Notes: generated by a model from the sequence alone, not told the origin. Shown: positions 4,333 through 23,966, counted from the stretch's first letter. The stretch: DNA of 23,966 nt from Nanopusillaceae archaeon (GCA_038735675.1 JAVYNJ010000008.1:1-23966), one strand, 5' to 3'. Program-made: numbers and translations.

Positions 4333-4561
4333 CCACAATAAGCGTTATTGTCCTTTCTACATAATCTAACTTTCTTAATTTATCAATTATTGCATTTCTA
4401 AGCTTATCAAAACTTTCAATTTTTACTTTAAGTATAGAATCATATTCACCATATACCAATGAAATATCTAGAAGCATAGAAGATAATTCTTTCTTTACAA
4501 ATTCTATAAATTCTTTTTCCTTTCCTGGCTTTAAATTTACTAAAACATAAGCTTCAATCAT
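4325..4561 (-). CDS. Stand-alone Lrp/AsnC-type ligand-binding (RAM) domain protein
   Basis: 78 aa. MIEAYVLVNLKPGKEKEF...VYGEYDSILKVKIESFDKLRNAIIDKLRKLDYVERTITLIV matches the AsnC_trans_reg pattern. There is no HTH. The start overlaps the upstream stop (TAATG). Confidence 0.65.
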   Translation of the reverse strand: MIEAYVLVNLKPGKEKEFIEFVKKELSSMLLDISLVYGEYDSILKVKIESFDKLRNAIIDKLRKLDYVERTITLIVAS

Positions 4562-4824
4562 TATTTTTTCTCTTTTTCTAATAATTTAATTAACTCTTTT
4601 ATATCTCTTCTAGTATATTCCAGTAATATCGCAACAATACCAATCCAAATGACATTAATCCATGCGTATATTGCTGCTAAGACTCCTGCTACCATTGATA
4701 ATCCTTCTAATGGAAATTCAATGGCTTTTACTAATAACAAAAATCCAAATAGTATTGTAAAGAAAAAGCCTATCAACAGTGCTATTTCTAATAAATTTGG
4801 CATTTTATAGTCAAAGCTTGCCAT
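4561..4824 (-). CDS. Small integral membrane protein, unknown function
   Basis: 87 aa with two to three hydrophobic spans and a charged C-terminal tail (KELIKLLEKEKK). Translationally coupled to the RAM-domain gene. Confidence 0.5.
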   Translation of the reverse strand: MASFDYKMPNLLEIALLIGFFFTILFGFLLLVKAIEFPLEGLSMVAGVLAAIYAWINVIWIGIVAILLEYTRRDIKELIKLLEKEKK

Positions 4825-6496: not shown

Positions 6497-7156
6497 ATGG
6501 ATGTTATCTTTATTCCAGCTAAAATAAAAATTAATGAATTAAAGAATTTTGATAAATTGCTAAAAATTCTACCAAAAAAAATAGGAATTGTATGCTTATT
6601 GCAATATATAGATGTTACTAATAAAATAATCTTAGAATTAAAAAAACTAGGATATGAAACTCTTTATTCTAATTCTTTATTTATTTTAGGATGTAATGTC
6701 AAAAACGCCGATTTACCGGCAGATACAATTTTATTAATTGGAGACGGAAAATTTCATGCACTGGAAATTGTTAGAAGTTTAAAAAAGGATGTAATTATAT
6801 ACAATCCTATAAGTGGAGAGATAAATACTATCTCAAAAGAAAATTATAAAAAATATCACACAAATATTCTTTATCTAATAGAAAAATTAAAGAATTCTAA
6901 TAATATTGGAATAGCTATTTCTATTAAACCTGGACAATATGATCAAAATTCCTTAAAATGGATTTTAGAGAAACTAAAAGATAAAAATTTGTATTTATTT
7001 ATAGGAGATAATATCGAAATGGATAAATTAATTAATTTTCCATATATAGAATTTTGGATAATCATTGCTTGCCCTAGAATCATAGATGATATTTTAGAAA
7101 GAAAAATAAATGCAATAACTATAGATTTAATTAAAAAAGATATGAAAATTCTATAA
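6497..7156 (+). CDS. dph2: Diphthamide synthesis protein Dph2 (2-(3-amino-3-carboxypropyl)histidine synthase), N-terminally short
   Basis: 219 aa. Motifs LFILGCNV, LLIGDGKFHALE, IGIAISIKPGQ and WIIIACPRI match archaeal Dph2 domains 2 and 3, from memory of the P. horikoshii protein (about 340 aa). The roughly 100-aa first domain is absent. Confidence 0.78.
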   Translation: MDVIFIPAKIKINELKNFDKLLKILPKKIGIVCLLQYIDVTNKIILELKKLGYETLYSNSLFILGCNVKNADLPADTILLIGDGKFHALEIVRSLKKDVIIYNPISGEINTISKENYKKYHTNILYLIEKLKNSNNIGIAISIKPGQYDQNSLKWILEKLKDKNLYLFIGDNIEMDKLINFPYIEFWIIIACPRIIDDILERKINAITIDLIKKDMKIL

Positions 7157-9149
7157 AGAGCGGACTTACAAGATTCCACAAAATAATTGTAGATAATAAA
7201 GAAAATATTAGAAATAATAAACTAGATTTAAACATATAATCGTACATAATTTTGTATTTTTTTATTTTATCATCCTCATGTTCAACTATAGATAAAATAA
7301 AAACAGATAAATAGGTTATAATTATATTAAATATTCCAACAATAATGTATAATTTTTGTGGCGTTAAAAATCCAGAAACATTAAATAAACTAAAAACATC
7401 TATTATTGCATAGTTTATATACTCATTGAAACTGTATGGATTTTCCATTTGTAATTTTATATTTTTCATAATCACTCCAAGGCTATGCAATATATATAGA
7501 GAAAGAATTGAAACTGCAATAACTACTGCTAAAATAGCTGGTCCTACAAACCTAGATATTACTTTTATTTGAGAAATAGATTCCGCAGTAAGATCTAATA
7601 ATCTTCTCTTAACTTTTTCTATATATTTAAAATATTTAGCTATAAAAATCGCTGTTTTTCCACAGTTTTGCGGAGATACTGATGAACTTTCTATTAACAA
7701 TTCCATAACTGCTTCCAAATATGCTGAAGGATACTTTCTTAAAGCACCTATTCTTCTATCAAAAACTGCCGTTTTAAATGGAATACCCAATTTTAGATTT
7801 TTATGTATGTCTTTCAAAAAATTTTCAATTGGTTTACCTTTAAATCTATCTTTTATTCTTATAATCGCTTCTTCTATAGGAATATTGCTCATTAAAACAT
7901 TTCCTAATGTAAAAGAAAAAGATGATATGTCCTTTTCTATTTTACTTAAATCTATATCTAAATCTCTAAAAGCAAGATAGTAAATAAAATGATATGCTGC
8001 TATTCCTAATCCTATACTAAATACAAATATTCCTGCCAATATTATATTAAACAAACTATAATTAGCTAAGAAATTAAATAAAAATTGAAATATCAAATAG
8101 AGAGTAATGATTACAATTCCAATAGAGGCTACTAATGCTTTTAAATTAATTAATTCTTTTTCTTTTTCTTTCAAACTTAGATAATAATAAAAAGTTCCTT
8201 TAGAAAAGATATTGAAAAAACGATTTTCAATAAATATTTTTATAGAAACGAAAACAAAAATTGGAATAATTACATCTACTAAAACAAATAGTATAAATGG
8301 AGAAAATATTTCAGATAAAAAAACAGAAGCTAAAGGAAAAATTGTTAAAAGTAAAGTCGGAAAGGTAATTCCAAAAACCGATATAATATCTATAACTCCC
8401 TTTAATTCGCGCACATTAACTTCCATATAACTCAATAAAGAATCTAAGGATTCTTCTAATGCTTTATCAACTAATTTTTCTCTTTCCATTTGATTGGGTT
8501 CATAAATAGATGAAATCAAAAATTGCATACCTATAGAAAAAAATGGAGCTTCATCTTCCCAAGATTTTGAATATTTGTCTAAAGCTTCTGCAGCTGAAAA
8601 ATATACTTTATTTATGATATCTCGTATTAAATTTAATATATCTATTTTTATTGGAGGAGATAAATATCTAATTGTAAATAAAAGCGCTTTTTCTAAATTT
8701 GGATTTTCTCTCATTTTTAGAGCTAAAAAAAGTAAAAAAGATATTAACTGTGCTCTTTTTTTATTTCTAGTAGACCTATATAAAATAAAGGGATATTCAC
8801 CAATAAGATAAGATAATAAAATTGAAAAAACAATTAAAATAATTAAAATTAACATATCGAAAATTATAAAAAATATTAATAATGAAACAAACAACATTAA
8901 AATTAAAAAGAAAACTTGAAATGAATATACTTGATTATAAATTATTTTTAAACTCAAATCTTTTTTAATTAACTCAAATTTTTGAATTTTATTTTTATCA
9001 TTAGTTGAAAGTTTCAAAAAATTATATACTTTTGTACATAAAAATTCATAGATCTTCAAAAATTTTCCAAAATATACTTCCTTATATAATTCAAGTTCTC
9101 TTTCTATATCAACATTAGAATAACTCTCTAAAGCCGTTCTTTCAACCAT
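7131..9149 (-). CDS. Type IV filament platform membrane protein (FlaJ/TadC/PilC-like, T2SS-F repeats)
   Basis: 672 aa, polytopic. It has two cytoplasmic helical-bundle regions (for example ...NPNLEKALLFTIRYLSPPI...ALEESLDSLL and ...IEEAIIRIKDRFKGKPIENFLKDIHKNLKLGIPFKTAV...), each followed by clusters of transmembrane segments. Its start overlaps the upstream ATPase gene by 22 nt. Confidence 0.75.
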   Translation of the reverse strand: MVERTALESYSNVDIERELELYKEVYFGKFLKIYEFLCTKVYNFLKLSTNDKNKIQKFELIKKDLSLKIIYNQVYSFQVFFLILMLFVSLLIFFIIFDMLILIILIVFSILLSYLIGEYPFILYRSTRNKKRAQLISFLLFLALKMRENPNLEKALLFTIRYLSPPIKIDILNLIRDIINKVYFSAAEALDKYSKSWEDEAPFFSIGMQFLISSIYEPNQMEREKLVDKALEESLDSLLSYMEVNVRELKGVIDIISVFGITFPTLLLTIFPLASVFLSEIFSPFILFVLVDVIIPIFVFVSIKIFIENRFFNIFSKGTFYYYLSLKEKEKELINLKALVASIGIVIITLYLIFQFLFNFLANYSLFNIILAGIFVFSIGLGIAAYHFIYYLAFRDLDIDLSKIEKDISSFSFTLGNVLMSNIPIEEAIIRIKDRFKGKPIENFLKDIHKNLKLGIPFKTAVFDRRIGALRKYPSAYLEAVMELLIESSSVSPQNCGKTAIFIAKYFKYIEKVKRRLLDLTAESISQIKVISRFVGPAILAVVIAVSILSLYILHSLGVIMKNIKLQMENPYSFNEYINYAIIDVFSLFNVSGFLTPQKLYIIVGIFNIIITYLSVFILSIVEHEDDKIKKYKIMYDYMFKSSLLFLIFSLLSTIILWNLVSPLFIEFSYLF

Positions 9150-11353
9150 TTTTTATATTCATCAACTATATAAGCCATATCTATTTCTCCAAATTTATTT
9201 ATACTTTCATCAATCAGTGAATATGTTTTTTCATTAGAAAGTACAACAAAATCGGCTTCTAAAAGATTTAGCTTTCCAGAATTTAAAGAAAAATCTACCA
9301 AAATTTTTTTAATATTTGCTAACGTTTCAATCATATTCCAAAGTCTTTCCCAAGACTTAGACAAAAATTTTGTTCTAGATGCTATAGATTTTAATACATC
9401 TGAATCTCCATTTAGAAGATCTTTAGTTATTTGTAATTCATCTTTATCCGAATCGTATACCATTAAATCTACAAATCCTTTTTCTCTTATTGGATCTTCA
9501 TTCCAATGTTTTCTAACTTCTGTTAATCTTAGAACTCTCCTATACTTTTTTAATCCGGAAGGACTTTTAATTGGATTTACCATAACAATAATATCGGTTG
9601 CTTTAAATGACGTTTTAGGAGTTCCCAAATCATTAACTACTCTATCATAAACCCCATAAGGGCTTTCAGCATGAATAGTACCTAAAACTGCATTAGATAA
9701 AGCTCCAACTCTCATAGCTTCATATAAAACTTGAGCTTCTCTAGATCTAACCTCTCCCAAAACTATAGCAGAATCTCCTAATCTTAAAGATGCTCTCAAT
9801 CCACTTTCTGCATCTAATTCTGAAGACTGTAATGAAAAAGGACTTTTAACTTTTAAAGATAAAACATCATATCCTAATTTTTTTAAATATACAACTGGAA
9901 TTTCCAAAGTATCTTCTATAGTAATTATTCTCACTTTTCTAGGCAATTCTAATAATAAAGAAGTTAATAAAGAAGTTTTTCCACTTCCTCTAGTACCTGC
10001 GATTAAAATTGTTCTACCATTATAAACTAAAAAGGACAAAAGCGCAGCAGCTAAGGAGGAAATAGTTTTATTAAGAATAAAAAGGGGTAAGGTCCATGGT
10101 TTTTCTCTATGTCTTCTAAATACATAAGATAAACCATGAGAACTAAGCGGTTTATTTATTCCAGCTACTCTTAATCTAATGCCATCAAACTCTATCTCTG
10201 TATCAATTATGGGATTTGCCTCATCAAAAGGTCTTCCAGATAATAATCTTAGTTTTGTTGCCCAGGATTCCAATTCTCTCTTTGTAGGTATTACATTTGT
10301 AACACAAAGATCATAGTCTGCGTGTAATATAGTAATAGGAGTCATTCCAGCTGGAGGATTAACATATATATCTATTATTCTATCATCTAAAGCAATTTTT
10401 TCAATTATTCCAAAACCTATTGTATATCTAATTAATATATTTTTTAATATTTTTAATCTGTCTCTAGAGATTTCTTTATTTTTTAATAAACTTAGTAGAA
10501 TATTTTCAGCTATTTTTTCATAAATATCACGAAGTTTTTCGGGATATAGATAATCTGAAGCGCTAGGTTGATATTTTATTAGTATATCTCTTGCTTGATT
10601 TAAAATAGATATTTCATCAGAAGTTAGTTTATATTCTGTAGAATATATATAATACCTATAAAAGGCCTCGTTTTTATTTTTAAAGATCACTACTTCTGTA
10701 TCCTTATCCAAATTATAACTTTCTACTATTTCTGAGTCTGAATCAATTTTAAGTATCTGTTTCAAAAATACGAATTTTGGTTTTATATCAGAAACAAATA
10801 ATCTTTTATATATATCTCTTTGTCCTTTATACCCTATTAAAAAATCTTTAATTATCTTATAAACTTTAGAATTCTCAAATTGTGATATAAAAAAAGATAA
10901 AAGCTCTAATAATGGCTGAGAAAAAATAGAAATTTCTCTATTTTTTTCAGATAATATTTTTATTTTTCTAAATAATCTTTTAAGATCGACATAAACTTTA
11001 ATAGGGTGCTTAAGAAATTCTTTCTCAATTAAAGTAATAACTCTTTGGTATTCAAAATAAAAAGGAGTAGATTTAATAAGAAATTCATAATATTTTGGTG
11101 TTATATCTCTGAATTTTATATATAAATTTGAAAATTCTTTTAAATAATCAACAGAAAGACCGTAATATGATATTATTTCTTCTTGTTCTATTTCTATAGA
11201 TGTAATTCTTGGATCCTCTATAAGTTTTGAAATTACAAAACCCATTATTTCTGGATCTTCCTCAATAGTAGCTAAATAGGGATATCTTTGAGCATCAATT
11301 TTTAGAATTCTGTCATTTCCTTCTATTTCAATAGAATAGGGTAAAGTTTCCAT
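9128..11353 (-). CDS. Type II/IV secretion family ATPase (FlaI/PilB/VirB11-like) with long N- and C-terminal extensions
   Basis: 741 aa. Motifs are Walker A GTRGSGKTS (residues 453-461, nt 9971-9997), Asp box RIITIEDTLEI, Walker B-like DSAIVLGEVR and His box LGTIHAE. Upstream is GFGIIEKIALDDRIIDIYVNPP, typical of the N-terminal domain of these ATPases. Confidence 0.9.
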   Translation of the reverse strand: METLPYSIEIEGNDRILKIDAQRYPYLATIEEDPEIMGFVISKLIEDPRITSIEIEQEEIISYYGLSVDYLKEFSNLYIKFRDITPKYYEFLIKSTPFYFEYQRVITLIEKEFLKHPIKVYVDLKRLFRKIKILSEKNREISIFSQPLLELLSFFISQFENSKVYKIIKDFLIGYKGQRDIYKRLFVSDIKPKFVFLKQILKIDSDSEIVESYNLDKDTEVVIFKNKNEAFYRYYIYSTEYKLTSDEISILNQARDILIKYQPSASDYLYPEKLRDIYEKIAENILLSLLKNKEISRDRLKILKNILIRYTIGFGIIEKIALDDRIIDIYVNPPAGMTPITILHADYDLCVTNVIPTKRELESWATKLRLLSGRPFDEANPIIDTEIEFDGIRLRVAGINKPLSSHGLSYVFRRHREKPWTLPLFILNKTISSLAAALLSFLVYNGRTILIAGTRGSGKTSLLTSLLLELPRKVRIITIEDTLEIPVVYLKKLGYDVLSLKVKSPFSLQSSELDAESGLRASLRLGDSAIVLGEVRSREAQVLYEAMRVGALSNAVLGTIHAESPYGVYDRVVNDLGTPKTSFKATDIIVMVNPIKSPSGLKKYRRVLRLTEVRKHWNEDPIREKGFVDLMVYDSDKDELQITKDLLNGDSDVLKSIASRTKFLSKSWERLWNMIETLANIKKILVDFSLNSGKLNLLEADFVVLSNEKTYSLIDESINKFGEIDMAYIVDEYKKWLKERL

Positions 11354-11446
11354 AATATTACTTTATTAATACTTTCAGATATAAAAAATATACTTTTGCT
11401 AGCAATTATAAAAGATTTTTATTTACTAGAATTTTTAATATCTTTT

Positions 11447-11818
11447 ATGATAGATCCTAATATTGATAAAAAAATAAAAATTATCGAAAATCGTTTATCA
11501 ATAGTTGAAAATGTTTTAAGTTCAATAAAAAATACCAATGAAAATAGAATAAATGCTATTGAAAATAAAATAAACGAGATATCTGAAGAAATAGCAAATT
11601 TAAAAAATCAAATCGCAACTATAGATTTAAAAATAAGAGCTATAATTGATCAATTGCCTCTATTTGCTCCTATGGAGAGATTAAAAGCGATAGAAAAATA
11701 TATTGATATTATAGATCCATTTTCTTATTTAACTAAAAAAGAAGCTGAAAGATTAATAGAAAAAAAATTCAGAGAAATGATTAAAGAATTAAATATTATG
11801 AAAGATAAAGATATATAA
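11447..11818 (+). CDS. Coiled-coil protein, possibly FlaC/D/E-like
   Basis: The track ORF starts at a TTG (11396). The first ATG (11447) gives MIDPNIDKK..., with the same first codons (ATGATAGATC) as the next gene. The heptad-rich IIENRLSIVENVLSSIKNTNENRINAIENKINEISEEIANLKNQI resembles, from memory, the FlaC_arch coiled-coil pattern. Confidence 0.5.
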   Translation: MIDPNIDKKIKIIENRLSIVENVLSSIKNTNENRINAIENKINEISEEIANLKNQIATIDLKIRAIIDQLPLFAPMERLKAIEKYIDIIDPFSYLTKKEAERLIEKKFREMIKELNIMKDKDI

Positions 11819-11843
11819 ATTGTTAAAAATATAATAAATTGTT

Positions 11844-12461
11844 ATGATAGATCTGTTTAAATTCAAAAAAAAGGAAAGTAAAGACGAATCAGTAGAAAAT
11901 ATAGGACAATATGCTAGTTTAAATCAAAACATTCCTGTTAAAAATTTAGAATATAATCAACTTAGCCATAACTATTCTATGCAACAAAACAGACCATTTT
12001 ATCCGGAAGAAGACATAAGAACTCAATTTCAAAATATTTATGAAAATGTAAGAAGACCTATCGAAACTCGCGAAATTTATAATCAACCTGAGAAAATCGA
12101 TTATAGCTATGATTGGGAATCTTATATACAAGGAATAGTCGAAGATATTCTAAAAGATAAATTTTCAACCATAAATAACTTTTTTTCTGAGATAAAAGTT
12201 TGGAGAGAAAAATTAGAAATGGAAATTTCAAAAATAAACGAGAAGATAAGAGATATTGAAAATAGAATAAATGGAATGTATGAAATACTAGCTAAAAAGA
12301 TAGATGAATACGATAAAGGAATAAAAGAAGCTACCGTTGAAGTAGAAGCATTACACAGATTAATAAGAACTATGGTTCCTGCTATATCTGAATCCACTAA
12401 AGAGCTAAAAGAAACAATAGAAGAAATAAAACAACTAAGAGATCAATTAAAAAAGGTATAA
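11844..12461 (+). CDS. Coiled-coil protein with basic N-terminal motif and Q/N/Y-rich linker
   Basis: 205 aa. It has an MIDLFKFKKKESKD N-terminus and about 90 aa of low-complexity N/Q/Y/E-rich sequence. The C-terminal 100 aa are strongly heptad-patterned (EKLEMEISKINEKIRDIENRINGMYEILAKKIDEYDKGIKEATVEVEAL...KELKETIEEIKQLRDQLKK). Confidence 0.55.
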   Translation: MIDLFKFKKKESKDESVENIGQYASLNQNIPVKNLEYNQLSHNYSMQQNRPFYPEEDIRTQFQNIYENVRRPIETREIYNQPEKIDYSYDWESYIQGIVEDILKDKFSTINNFFSEIKVWREKLEMEISKINEKIRDIENRINGMYEILAKKIDEYDKGIKEATVEVEALHRLIRTMVPAISESTKELKETIEEIKQLRDQLKKV

Positions 12462-12475
12462 ATTTAATAAATTAA

Positions 12476-12817
12476 ATGGAGAAAAAATTAATTTTTTTGA
12501 TATTGTCTCTATCTATCTTTTCCTTAATTATTATCTTTCCTAGATTTTATGAAAAAGAAGAAAACAAAATTATAAACTCAAGAGAAATAATTGATGCCAG
12601 AAACCTATGTATTGCATTATGTGAGTATGTTAAAAGCAATATCACCGAGGAGAGTGTTTGCTTATCTGATAAAGATACTATAACTGGCGTCTATTGGAAA
12701 TACAAAGATATTTCATGTTTCGTTAGTGAAAAAGACAATCCTTGCATAGAAAAAGGAAAAATAGAAATTATTTTAGATTTAAATTGTAATTATAAAGAAT
12801 ACAGAGAAATAAAATAG
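12476..12817 (+). CDS. Small N-terminally anchored or secreted Cys-rich protein
   Basis: 113 aa. MEKK is followed by a 20-residue hydrophobic segment, then a soluble domain with six Cys and an N-I-T sequon. Confidence 0.5.
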   Translation: MEKKLIFLILSLSIFSLIIIFPRFYEKEENKIINSREIIDARNLCIALCEYVKSNITEESVCLSDKDTITGVYWKYKDISCFVSEKDNPCIEKGKIEIILDLNCNYKEYREIK

Positions 12818-12824
12818 CTAGATA

Positions 12825-13550
12825 ATGATTATAGTAGATTCTCACGTTCATCTATATGAATTTTCAGATTCTGAAATAAAATCGATCCTAAAAAACAATA
12901 AAATCGTCTTAATTTCTGTAGCAGAAGATTTTATAACTTCATTAAAAAACATTAAATTATCTATTATTTATGAAAATGTAATTCCAGCTATAGGAATACA
13001 TCCTTGGAAAGCGGGAGAAACTAAAAAAGAAGATTTAGAAGCTTTTAAAAATTTATTTAATAGAGAAAATATCAGAATTATTGGAGAAATAGGATTAGAT
13101 AAAAATTTTTATCCAAATACAATAGAAAAACAAAAAGAAATCTTTGAATTTTTTTTAAATTATGCTAAAGAGTATCAAATTCCCGTCAATTTGCATTCTT
13201 CGGGAGCTTGGAAAGAAGTATTTGATTATGTCTTAAAATATGATATTAAAAAAGCATATTTTCACTGGTATACTGGACCAAAAGAACTAATGGAAGAAAT
13301 AGTTAAAATTGGCTATTTTATTGGAATAAATGTTGCAGCGATTATTCAAGAAAAACAAAAAGAGATAATTAAAAATGTAAAAATTGAAAATTTATTAACA
13401 GAATCTGATGGATTGTATCGCTATAAATCTCTTATTTTACATCCAAATAAATTATTAGAACTTTATAATTACGTATCAAATTTAAAAAATATCAAAATTA
13501 CAGATCTTAGTAATCAAATAAGAAATAACCTATCCAGATATATTTATTAA
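12825..13550 (+). CDS. tatD: TatD-family metal-dependent hydrolase/DNase
   Basis: 241 aa. Motifs are IVDSHVHL (HxH), IGEIGLD, VNLHS, FHWYTG and TESDG, the TatD metal-ligand series. Confidence 0.85.
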   Translation: MIIVDSHVHLYEFSDSEIKSILKNNKIVLISVAEDFITSLKNIKLSIIYENVIPAIGIHPWKAGETKKEDLEAFKNLFNRENIRIIGEIGLDKNFYPNTIEKQKEIFEFFLNYAKEYQIPVNLHSSGAWKEVFDYVLKYDIKKAYFHWYTGPKELMEEIVKIGYFIGINVAAIIQEKQKEIIKNVKIENLLTESDGLYRYKSLILHPNKLLELYNYVSNLKNIKITDLSNQIRNNLSRYIY

Positions 13551-19087: not shown

Positions 19088-19360
19088 TTATCTTCTGAAA
19101 ATTGAATTAATTAAATTCTCTAAATAATTAATTCTCATAATTAAATTATCAACTTTAGCCAACAAGGTGTCTATTTTGCTATTTAATATTTGAAGTTGAT
19201 ATATTAAATTTTCTTCAGTCTTATCAAAAGACCTAGATTCTCCAAAAATATCATATGGTTCTCTCTTAGGTAAGTTAGAAACATTATGTTGCTCTTCATC
19301 AAAGATCTCAGTCTTTTTATCCTTTTTATTACTTTTTATTTTCTTAAAAAAACTTATCAT
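19088..19360 (-). CDS. Small coiled-coil protein with basic N-terminus
   Basis: 90 aa. It has an MISFFKKIKSNKKDKK N-terminus, a short acidic linker and a C-terminal heptad region (LIYQLQILNSKIDTLLAKVDNLIMRINYLENLINSI). The architecture echoes ORF 11844-12461. Confidence 0.45.
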   Translation of the reverse strand: MISFFKKIKSNKKDKKTEIFDEEQHNVSNLPKREPYDIFGESRSFDKTEENLIYQLQILNSKIDTLLAKVDNLIMRINYLENLINSIFRR

Positions 19361-21912: not shown

Positions 21913-23565
21913 ATGCTAGAGTACCTTTCATATATAGCAAAAGACTCTTACAAACAGATACTAATATTATCGACCACTTTTGTACTCTTCTTAAGTATCA
22001 TTGTATATCTCTTCCCAAACATATCTACAGATTTTTTTGCAATTTTAGTTACGATATATGTAATAACAGCAATTCAAATAATTTTAGTAAGTTATTATAA
22101 AATAAAATATTCTTTAGATAAAGATTTGCAATATTTTTTGACATATATTTATTCTATTTCTTTTACTACAACAAATATAAAGCGATTTTTTCAAATATTA
22201 TCTGAATCGGAAGAGTATCCGGAAATATCAAAAGTAATAAAGAGAATAATTTATATATCCGAAAAATATAATTTTACTTTTCCAGAAGCCATAAGATATG
22301 TTTTGCCATATATCGTAAATTGTGAATTTAAAGGATTTCTGGAGAGATTATCAACAGCTCTAGAGACTGGGGAAGATCTCCCCTCTTTCTTAGAAAGAGA
22401 ACATAAAAAAGCTTTAGAAAATTTTGATGTTAGATATAGAAAAGGATTAGAAAATGTTAGAATATTACAGGAAATTGGAGTTTCTATAATGTCTTCTCTA
22501 GCCTTTGTTTTTGTTATTATCTTAATATTGCCAATAATAATGCAAATAAATATATTTACTATATTTATTTATTTTATAACAACCTTCATTTCAGCAAATG
22601 CAATAATATATTTTTTATCAAGATATTTCATACCGGAAGATCAACTTTGGATACCTTACAAAGAAAAACCAGACAATTATTTAAAATTAAAGAATTTATT
22701 TGTTCTATTATTATCTATTTCAATCTTAATATTTTCAATATCTTATAGAATATTCCAAAACACTTTAATATGTTTTTCAATATCAATTTTACCTCTTATG
22801 TATATTAGCTATAAGTTTGGTTTGTTAGAAAAACAAGTCAAAAAAAAAGAAGAAAAATTTTCTAGCTTTTATAATACTATAATTAGTCTATCTGGCGTTT
22901 TTGGAACAAATCAAGTTAAAATTTTAGAAAGTGCTAAAATTCATGATTTTGGAGAACTTAATAATGATATAAACAATCTTTATAACAGAATAATCATAAC
23001 CAGAAATTATAAATCTTCTTGGTATTATTTTATAATAGAAATAGGAAGTAATTTAATATCAAAAATAATAACACCTTTCTATAAAATGCTTGAACATGGT
23101 GGAGAAATAGAAGAAGCTAGTAAAAAACTCTATGATGTTTTATTAAAAGTTTTAGAACTTAGAAGCTTTAAAATACAGTTTATAGCTGGAGCAAGAGGAT
23201 TTTTATATGGTGGTTTTATTGCATTTTCGGCAGTTTTGTTTGTTACTACTTTTATAACAGCTATGATGAAAACTTTATTCGAAAGTTTATCAACATTAGT
23301 ATCTGCAGAGATTGGAGGAATGTTAGGAATTCCTTTATTCGAAATAAATATTGATATAAAAATTTTAGAAGAGATAATAAATTTATTAATAATATTTCAG
23401 GCATTTATGATTTCCATAACTTTAAGAAATATTGATGGTGGATCAAAATTTGGCATTTTTATAGATTTCGCATTATTAATTTGGATCGCAACAGGAATAT
23501 ATATAATAACTAATATGTTCTTTGGTCAAATATTACCTTCATTCATGCAAGTCCCATCTCCATAA
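21913..23565 (+). CDS. Second FlaJ/TadC-like type IV filament platform membrane protein
   Basis: 550 aa. A cytoplasmic helical region (FTFPEAIRYVLPYIVNCEFKGFLERLSTALETGEDLPSFLEREHKKALENFDVRYRKGLENVRILQEIGV) is followed by transmembrane clusters. A second, similar unit follows (...ILESAKIHDFGELNNDINNLYNRI...EEASKKLYDVLLKVLELRSFKIQ), again with transmembrane segments. Confidence 0.7.
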   Translation: MLEYLSYIAKDSYKQILILSTTFVLFLSIIVYLFPNISTDFFAILVTIYVITAIQIILVSYYKIKYSLDKDLQYFLTYIYSISFTTTNIKRFFQILSESEEYPEISKVIKRIIYISEKYNFTFPEAIRYVLPYIVNCEFKGFLERLSTALETGEDLPSFLEREHKKALENFDVRYRKGLENVRILQEIGVSIMSSLAFVFVIILILPIIMQINIFTIFIYFITTFISANAIIYFLSRYFIPEDQLWIPYKEKPDNYLKLKNLFVLLLSISILIFSISYRIFQNTLICFSISILPLMYISYKFGLLEKQVKKKEEKFSSFYNTIISLSGVFGTNQVKILESAKIHDFGELNNDINNLYNRIIITRNYKSSWYYFIIEIGSNLISKIITPFYKMLEHGGEIEEASKKLYDVLLKVLELRSFKIQFIAGARGFLYGGFIAFSAVLFVTTFITAMMKTLFESLSTLVSAEIGGMLGIPLFEINIDIKILEEIINLLIIFQAFMISITLRNIDGGSKFGIFIDFALLIWIATGIYIITNMFFGQILPSFMQVPSP

Positions 23566-23966
23566 ATTTTTCTTTCTTTAGGAACATAATCTTTTACTTC
23601 TTTATTCTTTACAAAGATAGTTCCCCCGAAATCATTTCCACATTTAAGTATATAAAATCCGTCGTTTACATCTACTTTATTTATTTTCATTTCATCAGAG
23701 AGATAAAATACTTTCTTTAAATCTAACTCTAAAATTTTTTTAGCTGCTAAGGGACCAAAAATTTGAGATCCTTCAATGCTAAATCTTATTTTATTTCCTT
23801 CAATTTTCATAATATATAATCCACAATTGCTAAAAGGAATTTTATCTATAAAATTTTTTAGATCTGCGTTAGCAATAAAAATTTTTCCTTCTTTATTTGA
23901 TAAAAAGATAAAATCTTCTAAATTTATATTTTCTATTCCATATTCCTTAAAAAGTTCCTTAAAAAT
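23526..23966 (-). CDS. NIP7-like ribosome-biogenesis/RNA-binding protein with PUA-type C-terminal domain; partial, N-terminus outside the window
   Basis: The track shows only the last 94 aa. Hand translation shows the frame stays open to the window edge: IFKELFKEYGIENINLEDFIFLSNKEGKIFIANADLKNFIDKIPFSNCGLYIMKIEGNKIRFSIEGSQIF.... The pattern G.y.gk....k.r.siEG... followed by a small beta-rich domain resembles archaeal NIP7 homologues. Confidence 0.55.
   Translation of the reverse strand: MFKELFKEYGIENINLEDFIFLSNKEGKIFIANADLKNFIDKIPFSNCGLYIMKIEGNKIRFSIEGSQIFGPLAAKKILELDLKKVFYLSDEMKINKVDVNDGFYILKCGNDFGGTIFVKNKEVKDYVPKERKIYGDGTCMNEGNI

Follow-up and report, generated by a model that had tools for sequence, protein, structure and literature searches.

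A candidate type IV filament-superfamily motor locus with a conserved coiled-coil pair in Nanobdellales and related archaea

Nanoarchaeal ATPases without identifiable pilins have already been reported (Makarova, Koonin & Albers 2016, PMC4858521); a few of them were placed in clade 2 of the archaeal type IV filament (TFF) systems and others in subclade 4F, and two nanoarchaea were found to have secretion ATPases without a prepilin peptidase. The Nanoarchaeota have been summarised as having two type IV pilus (T4P) systems and an archaellum, with four FlaJ/TadC homologues (Jarett et al., PMC6142677). Here, we describe a locus on a 23,966-nt stretch of DNA from a Nanopusillaceae archaeon (Nanobdellales, DPANN; GCA_038735675.1 JAVYNJ010000008.1:1-23966), which we call the window, where a secretion-superfamily ATPase and a polytopic membrane protein are encoded divergently from two soluble coiled-coil proteins, CC1 and CC2. 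On balance, we think it probable that the locus is the motor core of a lineage-specific TFF-superfamily machine of the Nanoarchaeia/Nanobdellota, equipped with a coiled-coil pair and dependent on filament subunits and a prepilin peptidase supplied in trans. What is new is a conserved accessory set on a known type of motor.

The best solved relative of the ATPase is afGspE of A. fulgidus (2OAP), both in a family-profile search of the PDB (5e-37) and in a Foldseek comparison with an AlphaFold2 (AF2) model (E = 2e-27, TM-score 0.79, normalised by target length). Among whole loci, archaeal TFF system 2 (clade 2) comes close: its ATPases have extended N-termini and sometimes C-termini and are accompanied by a single platform gene, as here, and its description treats DPANN briefly (preprint 10.64898/2026.04.22.720090). 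System 2 loci encode several pilins, adhesins and often MinD-like ATPases, whereas the locus described here has none of these and two coiled-coil proteins instead. In the T4P of subclade 4F, an ATPase/TadC pair occurs with an intracellular coiled-coil protein, arCOG07564 (PMC4858521); the likeness to our locus is by description only, as is the difference that two distinct coiled-coil proteins are found here. An N-terminal Cys-rich domain, frequent on subclade 4F ATPases, is missing from the window ATPase.

The bacterial Tad motor (CpaF/TadA with TadB/TadC) supplies the second-best solved relative, CpaF (3e-28), and in both systems the ATPase gene is followed by a platform gene. Flp pilins and the prepilin peptidase TadV are required in the Tad system, as is a secretin in diderms; none of these was found here, and the platform is a single protein of ~670 aa as against TadB/TadC. 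The two-component TFF-like loci of subclade 4D, in Thermoproteales, consist of an ATPase and partners with four to five transmembrane (TM) segments, a pilin or secreted protein never being encoded (PMC4858521). Compared by description, they belong to another lineage and have another membrane partner, with no coiled-coil pair described. The archaellum motor ArlI/ArlJ shares the ATPase superfamily and fold (FlaI: profile search 8e-21; Foldseek E = 1e-26, TM-score 0.72, again normalised by target length). Both the archaellum, with ArlX or ArlC/D/E, and our locus, with CC1/CC2, have cytoplasmic coiled-coil accessory proteins that would surround or regulate the motor.

The ATPase gene (9128-11353, (-) strand, 741 aa, T2SSE/VirB11-type) overlaps that of the platform protein (7131-9149, (-) strand, 672 aa) by 22 nt (9128-9149), and the corresponding overlap is 25 nt in Nanobdella and Nanoclepta. 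The genes on the (+) strand are CC1 (11447-11818, 123 aa), CC2 (11844-12461, 205 aa), which encodes an N-terminal motif, a low-complexity linker and a C-terminal helical domain, and a gene for a Cys-rich protein (12476-12817, 113 aa) with one N-terminal hydrophobic segment and 6 Cys. The CC1 start, an ATG at 11447, is backed by the aligned N-termini of orthologues and leaves an AT-rich spacer of 93 bp (11354-11446) between the start codons of CC1 and the ATPase. This spacer measures 36-40 bp in five of seven Nanobdellales loci, and because it is short across the order we presume it to be a putative shared bidirectional promoter region. Homologues of all five genes are present in other genomes, so all five are real genes.

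The association of these genes was followed in two sets. The first comprises 86 loci of the ATPase family, 56 of them informative in having at least 3 kb upstream of the ATPase; the second is an independent metagenome collection searched reciprocally from CC2, using a closer subset of the CC2 alignment, which gave 478 confirmed relatives. Both coiled-coil genes stand beside the ATPase in 45 of the 56 informative loci, one of them in 2 and neither in 9. Across the 86 loci, CC1 homologues occur in 62, adjoining the ATPase and divergent from it, and CC2 homologues in 53, always next to CC1; a polytopic protein of 590-800 aa lies downstream of the ATPase in 80. Starting from CC2, we found CC1 and the ATPase in 34 of the 36 best metagenome loci that had enough sequence on the relevant side. 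The loci with this module range from the Nanobdellales to the "Woesearchaeota"; in its usual arrangement, CC1 and then CC2 run one way from the divergent spacer, and the ATPase and then the platform run the other.

Such adjacency might be inherited synteny without shared function; CC1 and CC2 would then be coiled-coil proteins of the cytoskeleton, of division or of regulation, unrelated to the ATPase beside them. In Nanobdella aerobiophila, Nanoclepta and other Nanobdellales, all five genes are collinear over an 18-kb region, and TatD, Dph2, RadB, eRF1 and other housekeeping neighbours are equally so; because the whole region is syntenic there, collinearity within this order says little on function. 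That situation, the nine loci that have the ATPase with no coiled-coil genes nearby, and the fact that we infer rather than observe a physical link between CC1/CC2 and the motor all agree with the synteny explanation. In the "Woesearchaeota", by contrast, different loci have different flanking housekeeping genes, yet the four genes for CC1, CC2, ATPase and platform still lie together. The linkage also outlasts rearrangement and inversion (L028, where L numbers denote individual loci) and holds in loci of variant gene order (L126, L142 and L146, counted among the 34); the search begun from CC2 leads back to the ATPase, and one N-terminal motif, described below, is common to the coiled-coil proteins and the ATPase. 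We therefore regard synteny without shared function as quite improbable.

The conserved module is thus four genes, not five, because CC1, CC2, the ATPase and the platform persist beyond the Nanobdellales and the Cys-rich gene does not. A first-pass annotation of the window had proposed a five-gene neighbourhood in which a secretion-superfamily ATPase was coupled to a FlaJ/TadC-like platform, and had put forward the coiled-coil pair and the Cys-rich protein as its uncharacterised, probably novel partners. Its five open reading frames (ORFs), 22-nt overlap and 93-bp divergent spacer are all as it gave them, and its labels for the ATPase and the two coiled-coil proteins agree with the profile and heptad results below. 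The platform call holds as regards position and is weak as regards sequence. Of the proposed partners, the pair proves specific to these loci and unannotated, and the Cys-rich protein, found in eight loci, all of them Nanobdellales, falls outside the conserved set.

In "Woesearchaeota"-type loci, the module extends further. Next to CC2, on its far side, lie genes for three tandem paralogous proteins of ~190 aa with five TM segments (5-TM), for example at 3936-5876 of L005 and also in L012, L014, L015, L019 and L025. We saw them in 37 genome loci, without exception on the strand of the ATPase, and in 67 of 80 metagenome loci (L086-L165). Conserved at the N-terminus of all three is G-hydrophobic-hydrophobic-[D/E] with LPFLLVFTIVFAILEKT after it. 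The paralogues match no Pfam family and probably belong to the same machine as a membrane component. In 22 genome loci (L013, L046, L056, L064 and L076 are examples), the ATPase gene is directly preceded, at a distance of ~140-200 bp and on its own strand, by a gene for a 47-aa ribbon-helix-helix protein (CopG-like, with a weak match to Pfam RHH_1), a candidate dedicated regulator. Neither the 5-TM family nor the ribbon-helix-helix gene was found when the window and the Nanobdellales loci were searched for them.

The ATPase matches Pfam T2SSE (PF00437) at 68.2 bits against a cut-off of 24.9 (E = 6.8e-19). Its AF2 model has a predicted local distance difference test (pLDDT) score of 85.7, and model and alignment together show the two-domain fold (N-terminal and C-terminal domains) intact, along with the Walker A motif AGTRGSGKTS (residues 452-461), the Asp box IEDTLE, the Walker B motif GDSAIVLGEVR and the His box GTIHAES. 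G453, K459, E480, D481, D527, E534 and H561 are invariant across 65 sequences. The protein is predicted, by sequence and model, to be a catalytically intact member of the secretion superfamily closest to archaeal GspE (2OAP). Compared with afGspE, its N-terminus is ~210 aa longer, forming a small alpha/beta unit and a helical bundle, and its C-terminus is ~100 aa longer and helical; both extensions hold residues invariant across the 65 sequences.

Members of this ATPase family have 710-785 aa and 42-60% identity over their full length. They are present in at least 554 species genomes (contigs from one genome per species) and span Nanopusillaceae, Nanoclepta, Nanobdella and "Woesearchaeota"/Nanoarchaeia metagenome-assembled genomes (MAGs); the best 80 of the at least 554 loci all come from Nanobdellales or "Woesearchaeota" MAGs. 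The window ATPase is identical to a protein encoded on contig JAWAIE010000001.1 of GCA_038888635.1, a MAG labelled "Nanopusillaceae archaeon". One homologue, P0025, reaches 917 aa and contains an intein domain (PF14890). MAGs with this Nanoarchaeia-type ATPase are often titled "uncultured Methanosarcinales archaeon" (L016, L018, L020, L025 and others), apparently a generic or wrong label.

The public name of the N. aerobiophila orthologue is "flagella-related ATPase FlaI". If that name were right, the ATPase and the platform would be the organism's archaellum motor, ArlI/ArlJ, and CC1/CC2 would be diverged ArlC/D/E proteins. The FlaI model is indeed the top NCBIfam match of the ATPase, but the score, 130.5 bits, is far below the cut-off of 550 for the ArlI/FlaI equivalog (NF058587). 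Because the ATPase fails this model and lies closer to afGspE and CpaF, "FlaI" seems, on sequence grounds, a loose and unsafe label for the Nanobdella orthologue. CC1 has a faint match to Pfam FlaC_arch (E = 0.011, 16.6 bits, cut-off 27.8) and ArlC/D/E proteins can diverge strongly (PMC4858521). FlaC_arch and Arch_fla_DE are nevertheless absent from the 25 families listed as most often matched when 30 CC1 and 28 CC2 members were scanned; CC1 and CC2 have no match to the FlaC/D/E models and do not have the TM segment of ArlX. That Nanobdellales are archaellated (PMC11104419) favours the archaellum reading; that the Nanoarchaeota are reported to have an archaellum besides two T4P systems (PMC6142677) tells against it.

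The window also contains a genuine archaellum platform gene outside the module, an orphan ArlJ/FlaJ (21913-23565, (+) strand, 550 aa) that matches NCBIfam NF004704 (E = 6.8e-83) and Pfam T2SSF (E = 2.2e-8) and is unrelated in sequence to the platform protein. It lies 10.6 kb away beside a ribosomal-protein block, without an adjacent ATPase, ArlI or ArlH, and its 3' end overlaps a convergent 94-aa ORF (23526-23810) by 40 nt. An exact-match look-up returned no record of this protein. No ArlB, ArlF, ArlG or ArlH gene adjoins the ATPase/platform pair. In N. aerobiophila, ArlBHIJ and additional archaellin-like genes are encoded at other sites in the genome (preprint 10.1101/2023.10.27.564410). In the genome studied here, the archaellum genes appear scattered. 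With a true ArlJ at another site and the ATPase so far from the FlaI model, we give very little credence to the idea that the pair is the archaellum motor.

Support for the platform protein comes from context. Its position after the ATPase, the overlap of the two genes and its topology make it a probable, highly diverged T2SSF/TadC/FlaJ-like subunit. The T2SSF domain is normally present in two copies in platform proteins. Pfam T2SSF (PF00482) matches a single stretch here, residues 413-530, at 19 bits (cut-off 25.2, E = 1.4e-3); three of nine family members match it weakly, and a search of NCBIfam gave no match. Comparison of the N-terminal with the C-terminal half gave no significant internal repeat (E = 0.25).

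For CC1 and CC2, the coiled-coil assignment rests on a heptad contrast of 0.85 in each, a value reached by none of 200 shuffles; the heptad regions are residues 5-70 of CC1 (z = 3.8) and 101-178 of CC2, and the same test gave no signal for TatD or the Cys-rich protein. CC1 ends in a conserved motif, K-Y-I-D-x-x-x-P-F-x-[FY]-[LV]-T-K-K-E. CC2 begins with a hydrophobic-basic motif, MIDLFKFKKKESK (MIDLFKFKKK in the window), and its C-terminal helical domain has a conserved E-Y-D-K ... A-L-H-R-L-I-R-T-M-x-P. Pfam, NCBIfam and PDB families were searched with single sequences, with every member of each family, with consensus sequences and with profiles; the outcome was sub-threshold generic coiled-coil matches at most, so that neither protein has acquired a confident annotation as something unrelated. 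A profile search with CC2 retrieved 693 proteins; the 120 listed are unnamed or have generic automated labels, and the organisms named among them are all Woesearchaeota or Nanoarchaeota. In the literature that we searched, no description was found of the CC1/CC2 pair, of the motif that they share or of the 5-TM triplet. Paralogy of CC1 and CC2 was considered and is not claimed: hhalign gave E = 2.4e-4, but the reversed control gave 6.9e-4.

The shared motif can be written M-x-L-F-x-K-K. It recurs at N-termini, as in MIDLFKFKKK of the window CC2 and MALFGKKKK of the "Woesearchaeota" CC2 consensus, and is present on 24 of 50 CC2 and 12 of 57 CC1 proteins. ATPases that start with M[AV]LF occur in eight of the nine loci without coiled-coil genes, compared with 14 of 48 with them (Fisher p = 0.0013, kinship ignored). 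N-terminal amphipathic-polybasic peptides are known as membrane-targeting signals. By analogy with these, the complex may need M-x-L-F-x-K-K on one or other of its parts as a signal for membrane attachment or docking. Separately, the window encodes a 90-aa protein (19088-19360, (-) strand) that has an N-terminal motif of the same kind as CC2 and many family ATPases, MISFFKKIKSNKKDKK. A heptad region occupies the C-terminal part of this protein, Nanoclepta has a conserved counterpart (L004, 10-282), and homology to CC1 or CC2 was undetectable.

Taken together, these features suggest how the machine might be arranged. A hexameric GspE/TadA-like ATPase would be made together with a large, highly diverged polytopic platform from overlapping genes. 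CC1 and CC2, both cytoplasmic, would be co-expressed divergently with this core and, as a coiled-coil assembly, would scaffold or regulate the motor from its cytoplasmic side, functionally like ArlX or ArlC/D/E of archaella or arCOG07564 of the halobacterial subclade 4F. The hydrophobic-polybasic peptide of CC2 would anchor this scaffold, either in the membrane or to a shared docking site. Filament subunits and a prepilin peptidase, which are not encoded in cis, would most likely be supplied from elsewhere in the scattered genome.

To look for the subunits, we applied FlaFind-type rules to all ORFs of 40 aa or more in the window, trying each possible start, and found no genuine class III signal peptide in the 24 kb. 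Class III candidates were seen in seven of the 86 related loci, some of them spurious. No A24 prepilin peptidase (FlaK/PibD) is present among the Pfam records of the genes in the 24-kb window. These results accord with the first-pass annotation in so far as it saw no class III signal peptide, no pilin, peptidase or archaellum accessory gene beside the pair, and a locus different from a standard fla/arl operon, and the rarity of class III candidates extends across the family. Two of its statements need amending. Its account of missing archaellum genes (archaellin, FlaF/G/H) overlooked the orphan ArlJ, and its module "without pilin or peptidase" is a window-level statement resting on 24 kb of a genome with scattered genes; in the related N. 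aerobiophila, ArlB and archaellin-like genes lie elsewhere (preprint 10.1101/2023.10.27.564410). Taken alone, the lack of pilins in the window is weak evidence, and it was already known for nanoarchaea.

A pilin-independent translocase would also fit several of these observations. The ATPase/platform and the coiled-coil pair, with the three 5-TM proteins outside the Nanobdellales, would then form an ATP-driven membrane conduit in host contact that imports or exports macromolecules or lipids, or extrudes the intercellular filaments of the attachment organelle, instead of assembling a filament from class III pilins. The scarcity of class III candidates near the pair (7 of 86 loci), the great distance of the platform from FlaJ/T2SSF and the nature of the conserved partners, cytoplasmic coiled coils and polytopic membrane proteins, all point that way. 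On the other hand, no cargo or channel feature was identified at the locus, and to our knowledge no known member of this ATPase clade operates without a pilin-like substrate. The literature can be read in both directions: secretion ATPases without a prepilin peptidase in two nanoarchaea and pilin-less TFF-type loci in subclade 4D (PMC4858521), together with Nanobdellales attachment organelles whose filaments pass through a portal (PMC11420986, PMC11104419), favour a conduit, but archaeal pilin genes are often unlinked (PMC4858521) and Nanobdellales encode several archaellin-like or pilin-like proteins elsewhere (preprint 10.1101/2023.10.27.564410). We consider a pilin-independent translocase unlikely. 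A bolder version, less likely again, would make the ATPase, platform, CC1 and CC2, with the 5-TM proteins outside the Nanobdellales, a DPANN-specific, pilin-independent, TFF-derived machine powering a host-contact apparatus, with M-x-L-F-x-K-K as a mobile membrane or docking signal. If true, this machine would extrude or anchor the intercellular filaments of the attachment organelle or move host material across the symbiont membrane.

Several points also weigh against a filament motor with a coiled-coil pair, the reading that we prefer. The platform stays below the Pfam T2SSF threshold (19 against 25.2 bits), the consensus of its family has no Pfam T2SSF match, and hhalign against the window's ArlJ is not significant (probability 0.6%). 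No pilin or peptidase is tied to the ATPase family in any locus examined, so filament assembly as the output of the machine is assumed rather than shown. Contacts between CC1, CC2 and the motor are likewise something we infer, the similarity of CC1 to CC2 is inseparable from coiled-coil composition, and the motif statistics ignore phylogeny, the loci without coiled-coil genes resembling two related subclades. The absence here of the 5-TM triplet of the "Woesearchaeota" means that the Nanobdellales version may be incomplete or work differently.

As for the Cys-rich protein, it is a surface protein specific to its lineage, with an unproven link to the machine. It is confined to the Nanobdellales, and since the entire region is syntenic in that order, we do not count it as an established member of the module. 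A word-index search returned four relatives, and an exhaustive profile search of 1.84 billion representatives returned 11 matches, of which ~7 are real small proteins. The other four, giants of 1760-5048 aa, raised the possibility that the domain is a repeat in giant surface proteins, which we rejected because the two inspected were highly repetitive and their score was summed over many weak repeats. In the AF2 model of the Cys-rich protein, which is of low confidence (pLDDT 69), a TM helix spans residues 3-24 and a second helix residues 35-55, with a low-confidence break (25-31) between them and five strands after them; the model found no PDB match at E <= 0.001. The protein has no [KR][GA] or FlaFind-type class III cleavage motif. 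A type IV pilin would have its N-terminal hydrophobic helix running on into alpha-1 and packed against a beta-sheet, and would have a class III cleavage site; the features seen here speak neither for nor against a pilin-like role.

The window as a whole has a G+C content of ~25% and densely packed archaeal housekeeping genes. A TatD-family nuclease (12825-13550) follows directly after the Cys-rich gene and is near the module in Nanobdellales; TatD is also found ~3.8-4.0 kb upstream of the ATPase, on the other strand, in five distant "Woesearchaeota" loci (L014, L058, L074, L078 and L085), through coincidence or old linkage. At the other end, a short Dph2-like gene (6497-7156, (+) strand, 219 aa, spanning Pfam positions 64-270 of 302) overlaps the 3' end of the platform gene convergently by 26 nt; truncation or splitting may account for its length. 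An 87-aa membrane protein of unassigned family, with ~3 hydrophobic segments by eye, is encoded at 4561-4824 on the (-) strand and occupies the same position in Nanobdella (L002, 14559-14813) and Nanoclepta (L004, 14543-14803).

Cryo-electron tomography of N. aerobiophila has revealed, in addition to archaella, a second, 15-nm appendage whose identity is unknown, and also an attachment organelle (PMC11104419); in a related Nanobdellales strain filaments pass through the cone portal of the attachment organelle (PMC11420986). The module, which N. aerobiophila itself carries in exactly this form, is a candidate for the genes behind the second appendage and the attachment organelle of these cultivated Nanobdellales. 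CC1, CC2 and the extended termini of the ATPase offer concrete targets for linking the motor to a surface structure, and two protein families, one of them with ~700 members, could be named as TFF accessory proteins. The four-gene set may build uncharacterised cell-surface or host-contact structures of these archaea.

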